64,000 nucleotides of DNA from assembly GCA_026396275.1 (NCBI GenBank), contig JAPLXC010000007.1:37084-101083 (forward strand), given 5' to 3'. The notes under the pieces were generated by a model that was given only the letters and a program-made list of their open reading frames with translations, was not told the origin of the DNA and did not search any database. The first letter of the stretch is position 1. Every line of letters starts with the position of its first letter. Below, in pieces: positions 28,515-44,682 of this stretch. The position numbers were made by a program, and so were the translations under genes. Source of the stretch: Candidatus Moraniibacteriota bacterium (lineage in GTDB: Bacteria; Patescibacteriota; Minisyncoccia; Moranbacterales; JAPLXC01).

Positions 28515-29108
28515 TTACAAATTTTTGATTTCCTCTACGATTTCCGGGAAGTGTTCTTGGTTGAAATGCTGGCGGTCTTCAAAAATATGCGCTTTAACAC
28601 TTGGTAAATCTTTCTTATATCTTTCAACTTCATTAAAAGGCACAATTGGATCATCCTTGCTTTGATACAAATGAATTATTGGGCATTGCTTTTCAACTCC
28701 TTCGAGCGATTTTTTAAAAACAAAATCACTAATCTCATGGGTTTCTGAATGTGGCGGAGCTACCAAAAAAAGAGCTTTTATTTTTTTAGGAAATTCGTTT
28801 TCAGATAAATATTTAACCAGAAAGATGCCTCCTTGCGAATGTCCGATTAAAATCGGTTCACTTTCCATAAATGGAAACATTCTTTTAAACCATATTTTCC
28901 ATTCCTCATACCTGGCATTATTTGAATTGGGCATACGGGGCGCAAGCACTTGGAATTCTCCTCCCAATTCCGATTGCAGGTGAATTTTCCAATCTTTTTT
29001 GGGCAGAAATGATTCAATCGTTACTTCCTGATTTTTAAGATCATCCAAAAATTTTTTGTACGAATCAAACGAACTTCCGCCATGTATAATAATAACTTGT
29101 TGTTTCAT
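28515..29108 (-). CDS. alpha/beta hydrolase, YdeN/RBBP9-like (second, divergent paralog)
   Basis: VIIIHGGSS ... LIGHSQGG. Confidence 0.6.
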   Translation of the reverse strand: MKQQVIIIHGGSSFDSYKKFLDDLKNQEVTIESFLPKKDWKIHLQSELGGEFQVLAPRMPNSNNARYEEWKIWFKRMFPFMESEPILIGHSQGGIFLVKYLSENEFPKKIKALFLVAPPHSETHEISDFVFKKSLEGVEKQCPIIHLYQSKDDPIVPFNEVERYKKDLPSVKAHIFEDRQHFNQEHFPEIVEEIKNL

Positions 29109-29273
29109 ACTGTAAATTTTTTACTTTCTCTAATCCCATCCTTCGCCATAAAGCTTCCACCGACGCCAAGGCTTTGGCGGACAAGTCGGAAGGACATGCC
29201 TAATTATTTACTTCTATAATCTCTAATCACCCCGTAAAATCCGCGGCGGATAACGGGGCAAGCCAACCCTCCC

Positions 29274-29293
29274 CCCAGTTAAATAATACTTCC
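29274..29293 (+). repeat. 20-nt direct repeat cccagttaaataatacttcc (copy 1)
   Basis: Exact second copy at 29905..29924; the pair brackets gene 29327..29806. Confidence 0.7.
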
Positions 29294-29926: not shown

Positions 29927-31105
29927 TTATTTTTCAAACAATTTTAAGTATCCAGAAAACACAAATAACCGGTTTCTTTTAAATCCGGTGATTTCTTTAA
30001 AAATCCCGATCTTTTCAAATTGTTTGACCAGCGTGCTTGCTGAAGGATGAGTTATTTGTAATCTTTTAGCTATCTGTTTAGTGTTTAAGATGGGCTGAGA
30101 ATACAAATGTTTCAGCAGTTCTTGTCCTATTTTTGCTCTTTTACCAAGAGACATAATTTTTTGTTCGGATTGATGTCTAAGAGCAATAATTTTTTCAAAC
30201 GTCAATTTGCCGTTTTTTGCCGTTTCCGCAACACCAACCAAAAAAAACTTGATCCAGTGTTCCAAGTCATTTGAAGTTCTCACAACGGTAAGCGCATCGT
30301 AATAAGCACCTTTGTTTCTTTCAAAGAAATCCGATAAATATAGCGTTGGTTTTGAGAGAATCCTCTGTGACACAAGATAGAGAGTAATAAGTAATCGGCC
30401 AATGCGACCATTGCCATCTAAAAATGGATGTATGGTTTCAAATTGATAATGACTAATAGCAATCTTAATCAGGTGAGGCATATCAATTTTCTTATTATGC
30501 CAAAACTTTTCTAAGTCGCTAAGCAAATACGGCATTTCATTGGGATGCGGCGGAATGAATACGGCGTCTTTCAATGTTGCGCCGCCAATCCAGTTTTGAC
30601 TGGTGCGTATTTCTCCGGAATCTTTATGTTTGCCGCGAACACCAGTTAATAAAATCTTATGAGTATCTTTAAGAAGTCGCATTGAAAGCGGAAGTTTTTC
30701 TAATTCAGCAATTGCATAATCCATTGCCTTTGTATAATTTTGAACTTCTGCCCAATCATCTCTTCTTTCGGGATTGATTTCTTCTTTAGGTAAAAGCGCC
30801 TCATCCATTCCCGTTTTAGTCCCTTCAATTCTACTGGACGTTGTTGCCTCTTTGAAAACATGCATGCGGATAAAAAAATCCACATCAGGCACAAGTAAAG
30901 AATAAGCATTCAATTCTCCCAGGTATCGTGTCGCTTCTTCAAGCAATACGTCAATCTTAGGGTCCAACCATTTAAAAGCCACATTGATCAGAGACGGGGA
31001 AAAACTTTTATATTCATATTGCTGTTTATATACGCCTGACTTAAATGTTGTATTTTTCATAATAATTGACTTTACATAAGAATATTTATATTTAAAGTTT
31101 AGCAC
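29927..31105 (-). CDS. Fic family protein (Fic/DOC domain with C-terminal winged helix)
   Basis: [14 protein letters not shown] Fic motif. Confidence 0.85.
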
Positions 31106-31344
31106 CTAACTTTACATATGTCAATTCATGTTAAAAGTTGGATTGTGGATAAAAGCGGGCAACCGCCTGCCTGCCCGCTTCGCAGTGAGGCGACCAGGCC
31201 TCGTAAAATTGACACCATAACGGGGTAAACAATCCATATCAGACGCTATATTATCCGGTAAAATCACGTGTTCAAAATACCAAACTATATCACCTAGTAA
31301 TTGCGGGTAATTACGAATTTTATGACGCCTTCTTTACGAATCTA

Positions 31345-31722
31345 TCAAAAATCATCCTCGCTTTTTTCATGAAAATATTTAAACCTCAATTCGCTGTAGC
31401 GCGGGTCGCTGACTATCTTATTAATTTTTTTTGATGTGTGTTTAATCTGAACATACAAGTCGCGCAATTCTTTTTCCATAGCCGCGATGAGATTTTTGCC
31501 GGTTTTCAGTTCAACGTAATTAAGCTTTTTTCTCATTTCAAAATCGGCCTGCTCCTTTTTTACCCTTTCAAGAATCCGCTTCTTTTCCGTATACTCTTTT
31601 TTGAGCGCAAGATACGCGCCGATCTCCATTTTTACGGCCTCTAGCTCCTCACGAAATTCCTCGTCGCCTTTTTCGCTTTTTTCACCAGCCGGAAACTGGA
31701 AATTTTCTAATTTTTGAGCCAT
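31345..31722 (-). CDS. hypothetical helical protein (downstream of AbrB/MazE-like gene)
   Basis: 125 aa, charged coiled-coil-like. Confidence 0.4.
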   Translation of the reverse strand: MAQKLENFQFPAGEKSEKGDEEFREELEAVKMEIGAYLALKKEYTEKKRILERVKKEQADFEMRKKLNYVELKTGKNLIAAMEKELRDLYVQIKHTSKKINKIVSDPRYSELRFKYFHEKSEDDF

Positions 31723-31749
31723 AAATTTACTTCTTCCAATCTTTAATCA

Positions 31750-31785
31750 CAATCCTGCCTCTAAACGCGCAATAATCGCGCAAGA
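31750..31785. promoter_or_regulatory. three direct CGCGCAA repeats at 11-nt spacing (iteron-like)
   Basis: aacgcgcaataatcgcgcaagaaatcgcgcaatag. Confidence 0.4.
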
Positions 31786-31799
31786 AATCGCGCAATAGT

Positions 31800-31976
31800 T
31801 TATCTATTTTTATTCCTATAATCCCTAATAACAATTCCTCCCTTAATCCTTTTCACCCTCACTCGCTGTTTTTCCTTCCAGCCGAGCGCATCGGTCATCT
31901 CTTTAGGTAAAGTCGTGGCCAAGCTCGTTTTGCCCAGCCGCACCAATTTTCTCGTGTTTTTGTCCTTTAATTTCAT
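31800..31976 (-). CDS. AbrB/MazE/SpoVT-family DNA-binding protein (antitoxin-like), 58 aa, unannotated
   Basis: MKLKDKNTRKLVRLGKTSLATTLPKEMTDALGWKEKQRVRVKRIKGGIVIRDYRNKNR: swapped-hairpin signature (VRLGKT.L..P......LG...G..V.V); palindrome atatacttaagtatat in its leader. Confidence 0.55.
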   Translation of the reverse strand: MKLKDKNTRKLVRLGKTSLATTLPKEMTDALGWKEKQRVRVKRIKGGIVIRDYRNKNR

Positions 31977-31982
31977 AGGCGA

Positions 31983-31998
31983 ATATACTTAAGTATAT
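31983..31998. promoter_or_regulatory. perfect 16-bp palindrome atatacttaagtatat between promoter and AbrB-like start: candidate operator
   Basis: Seen directly. Confidence 0.5.
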
Positions 31999-32016
31999 AC
32001 TTGGGTATATACCTCC

Positions 32017-32052
32017 ATCCTACGCCAAAAAGGCCTGGAAATCAAATAAAAA
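32017..32052 (-). promoter_or_regulatory. 36-nt exact repeat containing sigma70-like promoter on minus strand (TTGATT-17-TAGGAT), copy 1
   Basis: atcctacgccaaaaaggcctggaaatcaaataaaaa; identical copy at 32536..32571. Confidence 0.5.
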
Positions 32053-32137
32053 ACGGCGGGAGTTTGCGCCGTGAAAATCGGTTTGCCCGCGCCTCTTTTT
32101 TTCAAACAAAAACCCTGCCTCAATAATTGGGCAGGGC

Positions 32138-32365
32138 TTAGATGTTCATCCAGTGTTTCAGCAGGTACATATTTTCTTTAATTGAAATAGCAAGATAAAA
32201 CAGTAGAAAAGCTATGAGTATGGCAGTGTAATAAATCTCTTTGCGCTTTCGTGCCGCGGCATCAATCCGGCAACCCGTCTCAATGGCAAAAATACCCAGG
32301 CCGCAAATGACGACTTTGCCAAAGATGACGCCTCCCAATCCCCACAGTTCGTAATAAATTCCCAA
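32138..32365 (-). CDS. possible small membrane protein (TTG start; weak)
   Basis: 75 aa with two hydrophobic segments; no ATG start; downstream of second promoter copy. Confidence 0.2.
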   Translation of the reverse strand: MGIYYELWGLGGVIFGKVVICGLGIFAIETGCRIDAAARKRKEIYYTAILIAFLLFYLAISIKENMYLLKHWMNI

Positions 32366-33386: not shown

Positions 33387-36300
33387 TTAGGGTGATTTTT
33401 TTCGAAATCCGGTTCCGGCGGGAATGAGCCGTCCGATGATGACGTTTTCTTTCAACCCCCGCAACCGGTCTTCCTTGCCGATAACCGCGGCGTTGATGAG
33501 AACGCGCGCCGTTTCTTGAAAAGACGCCGCCGAAAGAAATGATTCAGTGGAAAGTGCCACTTTGGTAATGCCCATAATTATCTGTTCGCCTTTGGCTGCT
33601 GCGCCTCCGGTTTTCTTTATTTCCCTGTTGGCCTCTTCAAACTGATCTTTTTCCACAATGTCTCCCGGCAGCAGTTCAGTGTCTCCCGGGTCAAGAATTT
33701 TAATCCGACTCAACATCTGGCGGATGATAACCTCAATGTGCTTGTCGTTAATTCCTTCACCCTGGGAAGCATAAATTTCCTGAATTTCCCGGGTGATATA
33801 GCGCTGCACCTCTTCTCTTCCCAGCAGGTGGTAAAGTTTCTTAAGATCAATATTTCCCGCGTTGATCAAGGCGCCTTTGGCAATTGCCTGCCCTTTCTTC
33901 ACTAAAAGAGTTAACTCCGCCGGCACCGCATATTCCCGAATATCTTTTTTCTTGCCCTCGGTCTCGATTATAACAGTTATGGTTTTGTGATTTTTATTGT
34001 TAATATCCGCCACCTTTCCGTCCACTTCGGAAATAAGGCCTTCTCCCTTGGGCGGGCGGGCTTCAAATATTTCCTCCACCCGGGGAAGACCCTGGGTGAT
34101 GTCGGTTCCGGCCACTCCCCCGATATGGAAGGTTCTCATAGTGAGCTGGGTTCCCGGTTCTCCAATAGCCTGGGCGGCCACAATTCCGACGGCCTGGCCC
34201 AAGTGGACTACTTCATTTCTTCCCAGATCAATGCCGTAACATTTCTGGCATACTCCGCGCTTCGTCTTGCAGGTTATCACGCTGCGAATTTTCACCTTTT
34301 CAATATTAAGGCCTTCGATTTTTTTGGCATCTTCGCGGCTAATCAGGATATCTTTCCCGACAATTACTTTTTTGCCTTTGGGATCAGTGATGTCCTCAAT
34401 GGTCACTCTTCCCTCAACGCGGGCGGCAAAACTTTGCCCGATTTTATCGGAATCGGCTTTGTAAAGATAAGATCCTTCTTTGTCTTTGCAATCCTCTTCC
34501 CGGACAATCACGTCTTGAGCCACATCCACCAGGCGGCGGGTGAGATATCCGGCGGTGGAAGTACGGAGAGCCGTGTCGGCCATTCCCTTCCGGGCGCCGT
34601 GGGTGGAAATAAAATATTCAAGCACGTTGAATCCTTCTTTGAAAGAACTCTTCACGGGAAGTTCAATGGTCTCCCCGGTGGGACCGGCCACCAATCCTTT
34701 CATTCCCGTCATCTGCACTACCACCGATTCGCTTCCCCGGGCCTTGGAATGGATCATGAAATGAACCGCCCCTTCTTTATCCAGAGAATTACGAACCGCT
34801 TCCGCGATTTTATTCTTGGCTTCGTTCCAGACCTCGATCACCCGGTTCTTTCTTTCTTCTTCAGTCAGCAGTCCCATATTGTACTGCTGATTAATCGTTG
34901 CCACACTTTGCTCGGCCTGAGCCAGCACTGCTTTTTTCTCTTCCGGAACTTTCAAATCATCCATTCCCCAGCTGATGCCGGAACAGGTAACTGCCTGGAA
35001 GCCCAGATTTTTAATCCGGTCAATGTAATAAGCCGTTTTTTCCTGCCCAATTTCCTGGAGTAATCTAGCCACCAATCCCTTAAGTTCTTTCTTGGTCATT
35101 TCCTCATTAATGAAGCGCAACTGTTCGGGAAGGGCGTCGTTCAGGAGAACTCTGCCCACCGTTGTTTCAATAATCTTTTCGTTGAGCAACAGTTTTACTT
35201 GAGCATTAACTCTTACTATTCCCAGCTGATAAGCGTGAATGGCTTCTTCTTCCGAAGAGAATGCTTTTCCTTCTCCCTTTACGCCTTTTTTAATATGAGT
35301 GAGGTAATAAATTCCCAGTACCACATCCTGGGAAGGAACGGTGATGGGCTCACCGGTAGCGGGCTTAAGCAAGTTTTTAGTTGAAAGCATTATCTGGGAA
35401 CTTTCTTCCCGGGCCTGATCGGTAAGAGGAACGTGAACGGCCATTTGGTCGCCGTCAAAGTCAGCATTAAAGGCGGCGCACACCATCGGATGAATCTGAA
35501 TGGCTTTCCCTTCAATGAGCACCGGCTGGAAGGCCTGGATGGAAAGGCGGTGCAGAGTCGGCGCCCGGTTGAGGAGCACGTAGTGGCGTTCGATAATCTC
35601 ATCCAGAATTTCATAGGCCTCTTCGGCTTCAGCGTCCACCATTCTCCCGGCGGTGCGGACGTTGTGAGCGTATTCTTTTTCAATGAGTTGGTTAATGATA
35701 AATGGTTTGAATAGTTCAAGGGCCATTTTTTTCGGCAGCCCGGCTTGATGCAGTTTGAGCTGCGGTCCTACTATAATCACGCTCCGACCGGAGTAATCAA
35801 CTCTTTTTCCCAGTAGGTTCTGGCGAAAGCGTCCCTGTTTGCCTTTGAGAGAATCCGCCAGTGACCGGAGTGGCCGGCGCTGTCCGGTGGAGGCAGCCAC
35901 AGCCATCTGGCGCCGGCGGGCGCTATTGTCAAAAAGAGCGTCTACTGCTTCCTGCAGCATCCGTTTTTCATTGCGGGTAATTACTTCCGGAGCTCCCAAG
36001 TCAATGAGTTTTTTGAGACGATTGTTACGGTTGATAATCCGCCGGTAGAGATCGTTAAGGTCGGAAGTGGCAAAGCGGCCGCCATCAAGTGCAACCATTG
36101 GGCGAAGGTCGGGAGGAATGACTGGAATAACAATTGGCAGCATCCATTCAAGACGCAGTTTGGCTTTTTTAAACCCTTGAAAAAGTTTCAAGCGTTTGAG
36201 AAATTTTTTCCGATCGGTTATCTCTTCAGATTCCAACTCTTTCTTGAGGCGCTGGATCTGATCATCAACATTCATTTTCTCCAGAACCCGGCGGACAGCT

Positions 36301-36977
36301 TCAGCTCCAATGCCGGCGGAAAACACCTGGCCAAAACGGCTGGAAAGATTGAAATACTCCAGCTCCGAAAGAATCTGAAGGGAATGAAGACCCCTGAGCT
36401 CCTCCCGGGCGGAGCGGTAAATTTCTTTTAGCTCCTCCAAAAGTTTTTCGGGTGATCCGTCTTGAGTTAATTTTCCGCTCTTAATCTCTTTTTGCTTGGC
36501 TTTGTACTCATTGTCCAGCTGTTCCAGAGCCCGGGTGCGAGCCCCCTCGTCTAATTCCATAATTAGGTAGGCAGAAAAGTAGACAACTTTTTCAATATCC
36601 TGAAGCGATATTCCCAGAGCCAGTCCTATCTTGGAAGGAACCCCCCGCAAAAACCAGATATGCGAAACCGGAACAGCCAGCTTGATATGGCCCATCCGCT
36701 CTCGGCGCACAATCGAACGGGTTACTTCCACGCCGCACTTATCGCAGACAATGCCTTTATAGCGGATGCGTTTGTATTTGCCGCAATAACATTCCCAGTC
36801 CTTCGAAGGACCGAAAATCTTTTCGCAAAACAGTCCGTCCTTTTCATACCGCTGGGTGCGGTAATTGATGGTCTCTGGCTTGGTTACTTCTCCGTGAGAC
36901 CAGGTCAATATTTTGTCGGGACTGGCCAGTTTCAGCTGAACGCTGTTAAAATCGCTTACTCTGATAATGTTTTCCAT
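33387..36977 (-). CDS. rpoC: DNA-directed RNA polymerase subunit beta'
   Basis: [14 protein letters not shown] catalytic motif, zinc-binding Cys cluster at N-terminus, 1196 aa. Confidence 0.97.
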
Positions 36978-43606: not shown

Positions 43607-43623
43607 AAAATATCTTCAGGATG

Positions 43624-43695
43624 AGCGAGTGATGGGAGTCGAACCCACGTCTTCAGCTTGGAAAGCTGACATAATAGCCGTTATACTACACTCGC
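43624..43695 (-). tRNA. tRNA-Gly (anticodon UCC)
   Basis: 7-bp acceptor GCGAGTG/CACTCGC, anticodon stem TCAGC/GCTGA with loop TTTCCAA, T-arm GTGGGTTCGACTCCCAT. Confidence 0.85.
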
Positions 43696-44282: not shown

Positions 44283-44681
44283 GGGGTTGTCTAGCTTCGA
44301 CATTTTGCACTTTAAAAAATTTGCAAACCGATTATGACAGTCATATCGTTAAACTGCCTGTCAAAATTATAAGTGCAAACTTATACTCAAAAGTAAAGGC
44401 CAGCATCGCGCAAGCGTTTGCTCCGGCTTTTGCTACCGCTTTGGCTTAATTTAAGCTTTAGCCATCGGACTATTGACTCCTTATAAATAGCAACCGGTGC
44501 CAACCATAAGGATAGCCCGCCTGATATTTTCTAAGTTAAGCGGGCAAAATTAAATTAGAAATAGATTAAAAAGATTTTGCTTGTTTATTACTTTTTAGTC
44601 AAAATAAATAAACCGGCTAAGTTTGTAGAAAATTTTTTAAAAGCAACAATGGACGCGAGTGCAATTCTCGCCAACTCCACC
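44283..44681 (+). ncRNA. ssrA: putative tmRNA (SsrA), ~399 nt, tag ORF ...AQAFAPAFATALA*
   Basis: 5' GGGGTTGtctagCTTCGAC resembles tmRNA 5' acceptor/D-loop; 3' GGACGCGAGtgcaattCTCGCcaactccACC = T-arm + complementary acceptor strand (one G-U) + ACC; in-frame gcg caa gcg ttt gct ccg gct ttt gct acc gct ttg gct taa at 44408..44449; adjacent to smpB. Confidence 0.65.
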
Positions 44682-44682
44682 T

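Follow-up and report, generated by a model that had tools for sequence, protein, structure and literature searches.

A 58-residue AbrB/MazE-fold protein of a Moranbacterial genome as a probable autoregulated leader of interchangeable cargo genes rather than an antitoxin

Several described systems resemble the gene considered here, which encodes a 58-amino-acid (aa) protein and lies in a 64,000-nucleotide (nt) stretch of Candidatus Moraniibacteriota contig JAPLXC010000007.1 (the whole of this stretch is referred to below as the window). One is the AbrB/MazE/SpoVT domain (PF04014) itself, with which the window gene shares a hidden Markov model (HMM) match, a β-β-α-β-β order, a small basic product and a putative repeat-bearing, palindromic operator at its own promoter; the mini-family to which it belongs differs in being the bare domain plus a basic arm, multi-copy, and found largely in Patescibacteria. 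Type II antitoxins such as MazE, VapB and PrlF have the same fold, small size, place as the first of two genes and autoregulatory operator (here predicted), but the mini-family has neither a toxin-binding C-terminal segment nor a conserved toxin partner. The controller (C) proteins of restriction-modification (R-M) systems, among them C.PvuII, C.AhdI, C.Esp1396I and C.Kpn2I, are Xre-type helix-turn-helix dimers. They too are products of small genes with tandem boxes at their own promoters, and a co-oriented endonuclease gene comes next, as it does at several mini-family loci (L011, L048, L050, L051, L070 and L071; L numbers denote loci). The mini-family departs from them in its AbrB fold, in the window gene being followed by a 125-aa gene and a SoFic gene, and in the many members that precede non-R-M genes.

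MraZ, the AbrB-superfamily regulator of dcw, likewise binds phased direct repeats in its own promoter. It comprises two fused AbrB-like domains (~150 aa), with a repeat period of ~10 bp and a fixed mraZ-rsmH-ftsL context, whereas the window protein is a single domain of 58 aa with rpoC, a Fic gene and unknown genes as neighbours. Sso7c4 and C56 of pSSVi, archaeal chromatin and plasmid proteins respectively, are minimal AbrB-fold DNA binders of ~56 aa and share its small size, being likewise the domain alone; we know of no paralog-specific phased operators for either. Lastly, the single-gene anti-phage defence SoFic is matched over its full length by a 392-aa open reading frame (ORF) of the window. 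The locus is unlike SoFic in that a triple box found there stands before the 125-aa gene, away from any Fic start codon, and in that the promoter of the window's own SoFic gene differs from the triple-box type and carries two ATGTAAAGT repeats. Taken as a whole, the 58-aa protein is, in our view, probably an autoregulated mini-AbrB regulator standing before interchangeable cargo and not the antitoxin of a toxin–antitoxin (TA) pair.

The gene itself is unexceptional: it belongs to a known superfamily and has already been annotated.

31800..31976 (including the stop codon), minus strand: gene for a 58-aa minimal AbrB/MazE-fold protein, predicted to bind DNA (PF04014 match)

Its product, MKLKDKNTRKLVRLGKTSLATTLPKEMTDALGWKEKQRVRVKRIKGGIVIRDYRNKNR, matches the Pfam profile PF04014 (MazE_antitoxin) with 33.3 bits (E 4.7e-8, residues 15-55), above the curated gathering cut-off of 24.7 bits, and the likeness to AbrB and MazE proposed in an earlier sequence-only reading of this DNA is thereby borne out. 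A search with NCBIfam profiles gave TIGR01439 a score of 19.1, below its cut-off of 28.3. The same reading had called the gene unannotated, which is correct for the ORF track (ORFs of at least 60 aa only) but not overall, as NCBI holds an identical protein from a Candidatus Moranbacteria metagenome-assembled genome (MAG) under the name 'AbrB/MazE/SpoVT family DNA-binding domain-containing protein'. The AlphaFold2 (AF2) model, with a predicted local distance difference test (pLDDT) score of 70, shows the β-β-α-β-β half-barrel order, with strands at residues 7-14, 17-24, 36-44 and 47-52 and a helix at 25-31. Its best Foldseek matches were MazE (2mrn, 1ub4, 1mvf), the N-terminal part of AbrB (AbrB-N; 2k1n, 1yfb) and VapB (3zvk), and the archaeal plasmid protein C56 (7xi6) was also among them. 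The PF04014 domain stops at residue 55 of 58, three residues before the C-terminus. The ORF thus appears to encode a minimal AbrB/MazE-fold protein that would bind DNA as a swapped-hairpin homodimer, as indirectly suggested by the promoters of the paralogs, each of which carries its own cognate set of phased boxes.

These boxes, together with a putative promoter and its boundary, occupy the region directly upstream of the gene.

32053..32072, minus strand: terminator-like hairpin and T-run of the preceding transcription unit (terminator scan)
32040..32045, minus strand: putative -35-like hexamer TTGATT of the AbrB-gene promoter, aligned with the conserved TTTGC(T/C) block of the paralogs
32017..32022, minus strand: putative -10-like hexamer TAGGAT (block GGCGTAGGAT)
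31981..32012, minus strand: putative operator of three boxes, namely GTATATAC at 32005-32012, GTATATAC at 31993-32000 and GTATATTC at 31981-31988

The two hexamers are separated by a 17-nt spacer. Promoters of the paralogs are sigma-70-like and similarly built, with the TTTGC(T/C) block, a 17-nt spacer, GGCGTAAAAT and a first box within 3-13 nt; the window's TAGGAT matches GGCGTAAAAT column for column at L013, L018, L027, L038, L040 and L048. With a period of 12 nt, the operator boxes begin 3 nt after the promoter and finish 5 nt before the ATG, and the operator would span the transcription start, predicted near 32010, and nearly the whole 5′ untranslated region (5′UTR). A palindrome had previously been noticed in this leader. 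It is indeed perfect over 16 bp (ATATACTTAAGTATAT, 31983-31998), and is in fact part of the three phased GTATATAC boxes, with an overlapping copy carrying 2 mismatches 12 nt away (31995-32010); chance would supply about 0.29 matches with at most 3 mismatches in the whole window. The only two exact copies of GTATATAC in the 64 kb are both in the operator, and no further cluster of GTATATAC was found in the window. The same boxes occur upstream of the closest homologs (L011/L004, L017, L019, L021, L030 and L057), and in 7 other loci GTATATAC-type boxes are essentially restricted to the homolog's own upstream region. The hairpin at 32053..32072, which has a second hairpin upstream of it (32110-32139), is predicted to isolate the AbrB promoter from the preceding unit.

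The window protein has numerous relatives. A word-indexed protein search recovered 101 protein clusters of 55-60 aa that are 57-84% identical to it, with the consensus MKLKDKNTRKITRVGKTSLAVTLPKEM..ELGWREKQKV.VKR.RGG..IRDWKK, and, with each GTDB species represented by one genome, a scan yielded 361 loci confirmed by tblastn, almost all with Patescibacteria-type labels; the best 80 of the 361 were used for context. The contig index contained no exact match to proteins of the window, and gene context was accordingly taken from homologs. Family proteins consist of the bare domain preceded by a conserved basic N-terminal arm of 12 residues (MKLKDKNTRKxx), terminate 1-5 residues past the last strand, and may be present in two or three copies within single MAGs. 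To judge from these sequences, the mini-AbrB family is large, multi-copy, and expanded in or largely confined to Patescibacteria MAGs.

Phased boxes are a property of this family at large. An 8-mer recurring in phase at least twice (one mismatch allowed, period 10-13 nt) was found in 56 of 75 family upstream regions, as opposed to 8 of 69 control regions and 12 of 75 shuffled sequences; three or four copies were present in 14 of the 75 and at least three in none of the controls. The observed period was almost always 12 nt. The heptamer TACTTAC occurred in 29 of 74 family upstream regions and in no control region. Box types differ among paralogs (GTATATAC, AATAC(T/G/A)TA, TTACGTAA and GTTAAGTAAC-like), as do the residues of the first β-hairpin, and the two pair off: RKL(L/V/M/Q)..GKTSL with GTATATAC (8/9), RKIT..GKTSL with ATACnTA (16/20), G(G/K)(K/Q/R)S with TTACGTAA (11 of the 13 that have a classifiable box), and a G-R-x-G-x-S insertion class with a TTAAGTAA-like box (6/6). 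The resulting table of subclass against box type is near-diagonal (chi-square p 5e-20; 0 of 20000 permutations reach the observed diagonal), although these statistics ignore shared descent and concern classes set after the data had been inspected. Because the classes are post hoc and relatedness is uncontrolled, the covariation supports, and does not prove, the idea that box sequence tracks the first-hairpin residues of the protein subclass.

The genes that follow family members were surveyed at the 60 loci where the next gene is co-oriented and begins no more than 160 nt away. Endonuclease-type genes included MvaI/BcnI, DpnI (two), Bsp6I, MmeI-type (three), Eco57I-type and ResIII/HsdR (three), while methyltransferases comprised N6_N4 (four) and EcoRI, C5 and D12 types; Fic/SoFic, RadC (2), MazG-like (2) and patatin genes were also found. 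Gaps were often 1-30 nt, and the products extended in size from unknown proteins of 75 aa up to type IIG restriction enzymes of 900 aa. An endonuclease gene follows directly at L011 (MvaI/BcnI, gap 1 nt), L050 (DpnI, 29 nt), L071 (Bsp6I, 27 nt), L048 (MmeI), L051 (HsdR/ResIII) and L070 (Eco57I-type), the last three each with a gap of 4 nt. None of the downstream proteins examined belonged to PemK, PIN, YhaV or similar toxin families. Restriction-modification families were absent from those listed for 51 upstream neighbours, which included RhuM (3), Fic (3), ArsR (2) and single housekeeping genes. The R-M link is therefore strongly directional, running downstream and not upstream. Among relatives with known context the closest is L004/L011, whose protein is 79% identical to that of the window and whose gene has the same three GTATATAC boxes, also lies downstream of rpoC, and stands 1 nt before the MvaI/BcnI endonuclease gene, with a convergent gene for a LexA-fused methyltransferase.

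In the mechanism that we favour, swapped-hairpin dimers of the 58-aa protein would line up along one face of the DNA helix at the phased boxes and, straddling the transcription start, repress transcription of the protein's own gene. Such negative autoregulation is the most economical reading of boxes that cover the predicted start. The transcript would then run through a 77-nt spacer into the 125-aa gene, as cargo under the same control, and end at 31158-31171. Across the family, the small gene would be a portable leader and regulator placed before interchangeable cargo, most often restriction endonucleases and DNA methyltransferases, with a regulatory logic resembling that of C proteins in a different fold. 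With somewhat less than even confidence, we extend this to a generalised Patescibacteria counterpart of C proteins: a portable cassette of promoter, 2-4 paralog-specific boxes in 12-bp phase and mini-repressor, recombined before acquired genes that are potentially harmful, to time or cap their expression. Its cargo would include endonucleases, type IIG and type I enzymes, SoFic, RadC and MazG-like proteins, and a few residues of the first β-hairpin would suffice to reprogram specificity. The window may then represent an exchange caught midway, in which one copy is intact, two survive as 3′ relics and a SoFic promoter module has been captured.

The 77-nt spacer between the 58-aa and 125-aa genes contains two of the elements just mentioned.

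31766..31795, minus strand: triple box TTGCGCG-N5-TTGCGCG-N4-TTGCGCG (CGCGCAA three times on the plus strand), starting 4 nt past the AbrB stop codon
31727..31762, minus strand, frame f1: apparent relic of a second AbrB-family gene, reduced to its final 11 codons (RGRIVIKDWKK) and a stop

The sequence-only reading had described three CGCGCAA repeats at 11-nt phasing and regarded them as iterons of the AbrB gene. Three exact copies are present (31766, 31777 and 31789), at spacings of 11 and then 12 nt rather than a uniform 11. Over the whole window CGCGCAA occurs 9 times against 8.9 expected, and the non-random part is the clustering of three copies within 30 nt. An exact search for the pattern TTGCGCGANNNNTTGCGCGANNNTTGCG gave 110 matches among metagenome sequences and, separately, one in a viral collection, where a rough estimate puts chance expectation at about 0.5; a generalised form, TTGCGCGAT-N3-TTGCGCGAT-N2-TTGCG(C/T)G, is seen at L087, L089 and L092-L202. 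A gene for a SoFic-like protein of ~351 aa (MFNPKYKLTNKIV...; Pfam Fic, PADLOC SoFic at 2e-57, C-terminal winged helix-turn-helix (wHTH)) lies 13-70 nt (median 28) downstream of the triple box in 57 of 90 unique contexts. In 37 of these 57 the third box stands exactly 17 nt upstream of a good -10 and thus serves as the -35. An AbrB-family gene is near the triple box in only 3 of the 90; at L087 and L089 the box follows AbrB-family genes (different paralogs) and Fic genes come next. The label of iterons accordingly does not survive. The triple box is, on this comparison, apparently the promoter and operator module of SoFic-like genes, which the wHTH of the SoFic-like protein itself may bind, and the window would hold a displaced copy. 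A role as operators of the AbrB protein was rejected on the same 3 of 90 contexts and on the three flanking paralogs being of different specificity classes.

Both in the window and in copies of the L087/L132 type, the module has lost its -10 and Fic gene and adjoins an AbrB relic. What marks the window relic as that of a second AbrB-family gene is its agreement with RGGILIKDWKK, the C-terminal consensus of the family; its end and the ATG of the 125-aa gene are 4 nt apart. At the same position L003 keeps DWKK and the stop, and L001 less. A second, destroyed AbrB-family gene thus seems once to have preceded the 125-aa gene, and the spacer would be a recombination mosaic that joins a captured triple-box module to this relic. 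No second intact AbrB copy was found in the window, which has two short 3′ relics only. The other relic is a possible one, GVIRDYRSK and a stop, at 29204-29233 on the minus strand (tblastn E only 1.5), ~95 nt upstream of a serine hydrolase gene (28515-29108); L027 has an intact family member 4 nt upstream of a homologous hydrolase gene. At L145 (oriented, 10-150) an AbrB-like ORF (MAERKSVHKLKKASAYSFSLTIPKEIVEKYKWR...) is cut after ...KWR, where the triple box and a SoFic-like gene begin, a junction that suggests insertion of the Fic module into AbrB-family genes, or recombination between the two. An intergenic hairpin, CCCCGTTAAAT...ATTTAACGGGG, recurs at L004/L011, L024, L061 and L089/L119, and at L004/L011 it sits between the operator boxes and the AbrB ATG; a similar hairpin, ccccgttatccgccgcggattttacgggg, lies beside the GVIRDYRSK relic (window about 29243-29275). 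The recurring hairpin may be a small mobile or REP-like element.

The gene beyond the spacer and the end of its putative transcript are as follows.

31345..31722, minus strand: gene for a 125-aa protein, modelled by AF2 as a three-helix coiled coil, with an invariant D-P-R (DPRY motif)
31158..31171, minus strand: terminator-like hairpin GCGGGCA...TGCCCGC followed by TTTTAT, after the 125-aa gene; kept in L003

Named 'hypothetical protein NT136_02340' by NCBI, the 125-aa protein is probably co-transcribed with the AbrB gene, in a transcript that likely stops at the hairpin. It exceeded no family cut-off in Pfam, NCBIfam, PHROGs or PADLOC. Its AF2 model (pLDDT 78; helices 20-63, 69-104 and 107-122) returned only generic coiled coils from the PDB by Foldseek (E ≥ 0.28) and no toxin fold, so structure prediction and profile libraries agree with the original remark that no toxin fold is recognisable. 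Three close homologs and eight relatives among 1.84 billion cluster representatives were found, with the D-P-R near the C-terminus invariant; the protein is by its model a three-helix coiled coil, and its family is tiny and lineage-specific. No homolog of it occurs in the 79 other genome-scan family loci (L011-L089) or in seven context loci (L004-L010). Conversely, its homologs at L001, L003 and L090 are without an intact AbrB gene upstream; what precedes them is a 92-aa unknown gene and a terminator (L001), a decayed region (L003) and a gene for a 525-aa protein (L090). L003 has the AbrB relic only, yet its 129-aa homolog is intact. The only recurring neighbour found for the 125-aa family is a convergent YkuD (L,D-transpeptidase) gene, downstream of the homologs in three independent contexts (L001, L002 and L090/L091), with a TspO gene between the two at L001 and L002.

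Further downstream lies the SoFic gene.

29927..31105, minus strand: gene for a SoFic-type Fic AMP-transferase, 392-aa ORF (Pfam Fic_N and Fic; PADLOC SoFic)

The protein matches Fic_N at 1e-23 and Fic at 1.9e-19 in Pfam, and SoFic at 3.4e-118, full-length, in PADLOC. It has the HPFx(D/E)GNGRxxR motif and an intramolecular inhibitory motif, TSSRIEGT; HTH_13, MarR and SoFic-like_C were matched at the C-terminus only below cut-off, and its identity to the ~351-aa SoFic-like type is 27%. A promoter scan gave the gene its own promoter, TTGACA-17-TAAACT (31124..31096), which is without GTATATAC boxes, and its two ATGTAAAGT repeats are 40 nt apart (31069-31117, minus strand) and kept in L003 (660-720). 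The true start is probably the ATG at 31060 and not the GTG at 31105 taken by the ORF tool. Comparison of L003 (575-821) with window 31040-31270 shows SoFic deleted and the terminator, the SoFic promoter and the first 14 coding nt (ATGAAAAATACAAC) retained, now upstream of the 129-aa homolog, remnants that imply rapid rearrangement of the island. The window AbrB-family gene and its L004 homolog are both on the rpoC strand, 1.4-3.8 kb downstream of that gene (window 33387-36977; L004 1-166), the small ORFs between rpoC and the AbrB-family gene are unrelated in the two, and the surroundings of the rpoBC operon in Moranbacteria may be a hotspot where variable or defence genes collect. Elsewhere in the window, Rfam reports a full-length tmRNA (44283-44682, plus strand, 146.5 bits), whereas ARAGORN finds in the same window only a tRNA-Gly (43623-43695) and no tmRNA.

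Several of our observations weigh against a DNA-bound autorepressor before interchangeable cargo. The Foldseek matches of the 58-aa model were non-significant (E 0.35-3, template modelling (TM) score about 0.5), as is to be expected because the model is a 58-residue monomer of an obligate dimer, and an AbrB-family profile found nothing among PDB chain sequences at E ≤ 0.01 and only spurious matches at E ≤ 10. The covariation carries the caveats given above. Among the 60 downstream genes are also those for YbeY, a serine hydrolase, a PEMT-like enzyme, an MFS transporter and many unknowns; because many cargo genes are non-defence, the likeness to C proteins may fit only part of the family. No R-M gene was found in this window, so the target of the 58-aa gene here beyond itself is uncertain. 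Finally, a folding energy of -9.7 kcal/mol was computed for the leader RNA, where shuffled sequences average -5.55 (z -1.84; 9 of 200 shuffles as good), and no Shine-Dalgarno sequence separates the last box from the ATG. Both would suit a role for the boxes as RNA, in which the self-complementary GUAUAUAC repeats of the 5′UTR form a hairpin controlling translation or stability of the AbrB mRNA and CGCGCAA is a terminator or attenuator. We think this quite unlikely: the direct repeats of most paralogs (AATACTTAC, TTCAGTAA and others) are non-palindromic and cannot pair, but keep the 12-nt period, which is about one helical turn, and box type follows the predicted DNA-contacting residues of the hairpin. 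As for CGCGCAA, the triple box serves as a -35 region elsewhere, and a function as RNA hairpin, terminator or attenuator was rejected when the 101-nt intergenic RNA folded no better than shuffles (z +0.67) and the terminator scan was negative. A general nucleoid-associated or global role, like that of Sso7c4 or B. subtilis AbrB, with the position before variable genes incidental, would fit very small, basic, highly conserved proteins in several copies per reduced genome, and the ~56-aa chromatin protein Sso7c4 is a precedent. This is very unlikely, however, given that each paralog has cognate boxes at its own promoter and essentially none elsewhere in the 6 kb around it, and that R-M genes are found downstream and not upstream.

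The remaining alternatives concern the neighbouring genes. In E. coli SoFic is toxic, and AS1, a small protein (47 aa) encoded adjacently downstream, counteracts it (PMC12249575); the window's SoFic gene, 0.66 kb downstream and a strong PADLOC match, might by analogy be the toxic effector of a three-gene abortive-infection unit, with the AbrB-like protein, the 125-aa protein or both as regulator or antidote. An AbrB-family gene 17 nt upstream of a SoFic gene at L026, SoFic homologs within 0.6 kb of family members at L040 and L050, and the SoFic-type promoter element represented by the triple TTGCGCG box all speak for such a unit. We nonetheless regard it as unlikely, since the terminator-like hairpin and a separate strong promoter stand between the 125-aa gene and SoFic, L003 has lost SoFic and kept its 129-aa gene, and L001 and L090 have no adjacent Fic gene; AS1, moreover, lies downstream of SoFic rather than upstream and is unrelated in size, and the inhibitory motif of SoFic is its own. 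The sequence-only reading had instead proposed a non-canonical type II TA pair of a 58-aa AbrB-like antitoxin and a novel 125-aa toxin. In its favour, a small AbrB/MazE-fold gene comes first, a second small gene follows 77 nt downstream on the same strand, the promoter has a palindromic operator, automated JGI names of homologs read 'antitoxin component of MazEF / YhaV-PrlF', and the relic indicates that an AbrB-family gene formerly stood 4 nt upstream of the 125-aa gene. The protein has, however, no C-terminal neutralising segment, its domain ending at residue 55 of 58 in a family of 55-60 aa, whereas the solved MazE and VapB chains among the fold matches are of 67-78 residues. Pairing with the 125-aa gene is unique to the window among the family loci examined, the family's cargo is highly diverse, large enzymes included, with no conserved adjacent toxin, and the 125-aa protein itself matches no toxin family or fold. 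Its homologs, finally, outlive the AbrB gene, being intact where that gene is absent or decayed (L001, L003, L090), and a 125-aa gene intact despite a decayed leader is hard to square with a toxin restrained by that leader. The TA reading is in this sense refuted as far as sequence analysis reaches, and we consider it very improbable; the fallback offered beside it, that of an orphan regulator, is nearly the reading to which the evidence leads.

For this window the result is mainly corrective: a candidate novel toxin is removed, and the palindrome, the supposed iterons and the small ORF receive ordinary explanations. Our literature search found no paper on an AbrB-fold analog of C proteins or on a mini-AbrB family in Patescibacteria, and the organisation of the family, with bare-domain repressors, phased paralog-specific boxes and a leader position before R-M and defence cargo, appears to be undescribed. 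In Patescibacteria, whose genomes are tiny, few transcription factors have been recognised. The interest at family level lies in abundant, multi-copy, minimal putative repressors with readable protein–operator classes and a directional link to R-M and defence genes. The TTGCGCGAT triple-box promoter, for its part, is a testable entry to the transcriptional control of SoFic-like abortive-infection toxins. If the cassette interpretation is true, the family would be a second structural answer to the controller problem, that is, the safe establishment of a lethal gene after horizontal transfer; it would also provide a compact natural toolkit of orthogonal repressor and operator pairs, and a handle on gene regulation in an uncultivated phylum.

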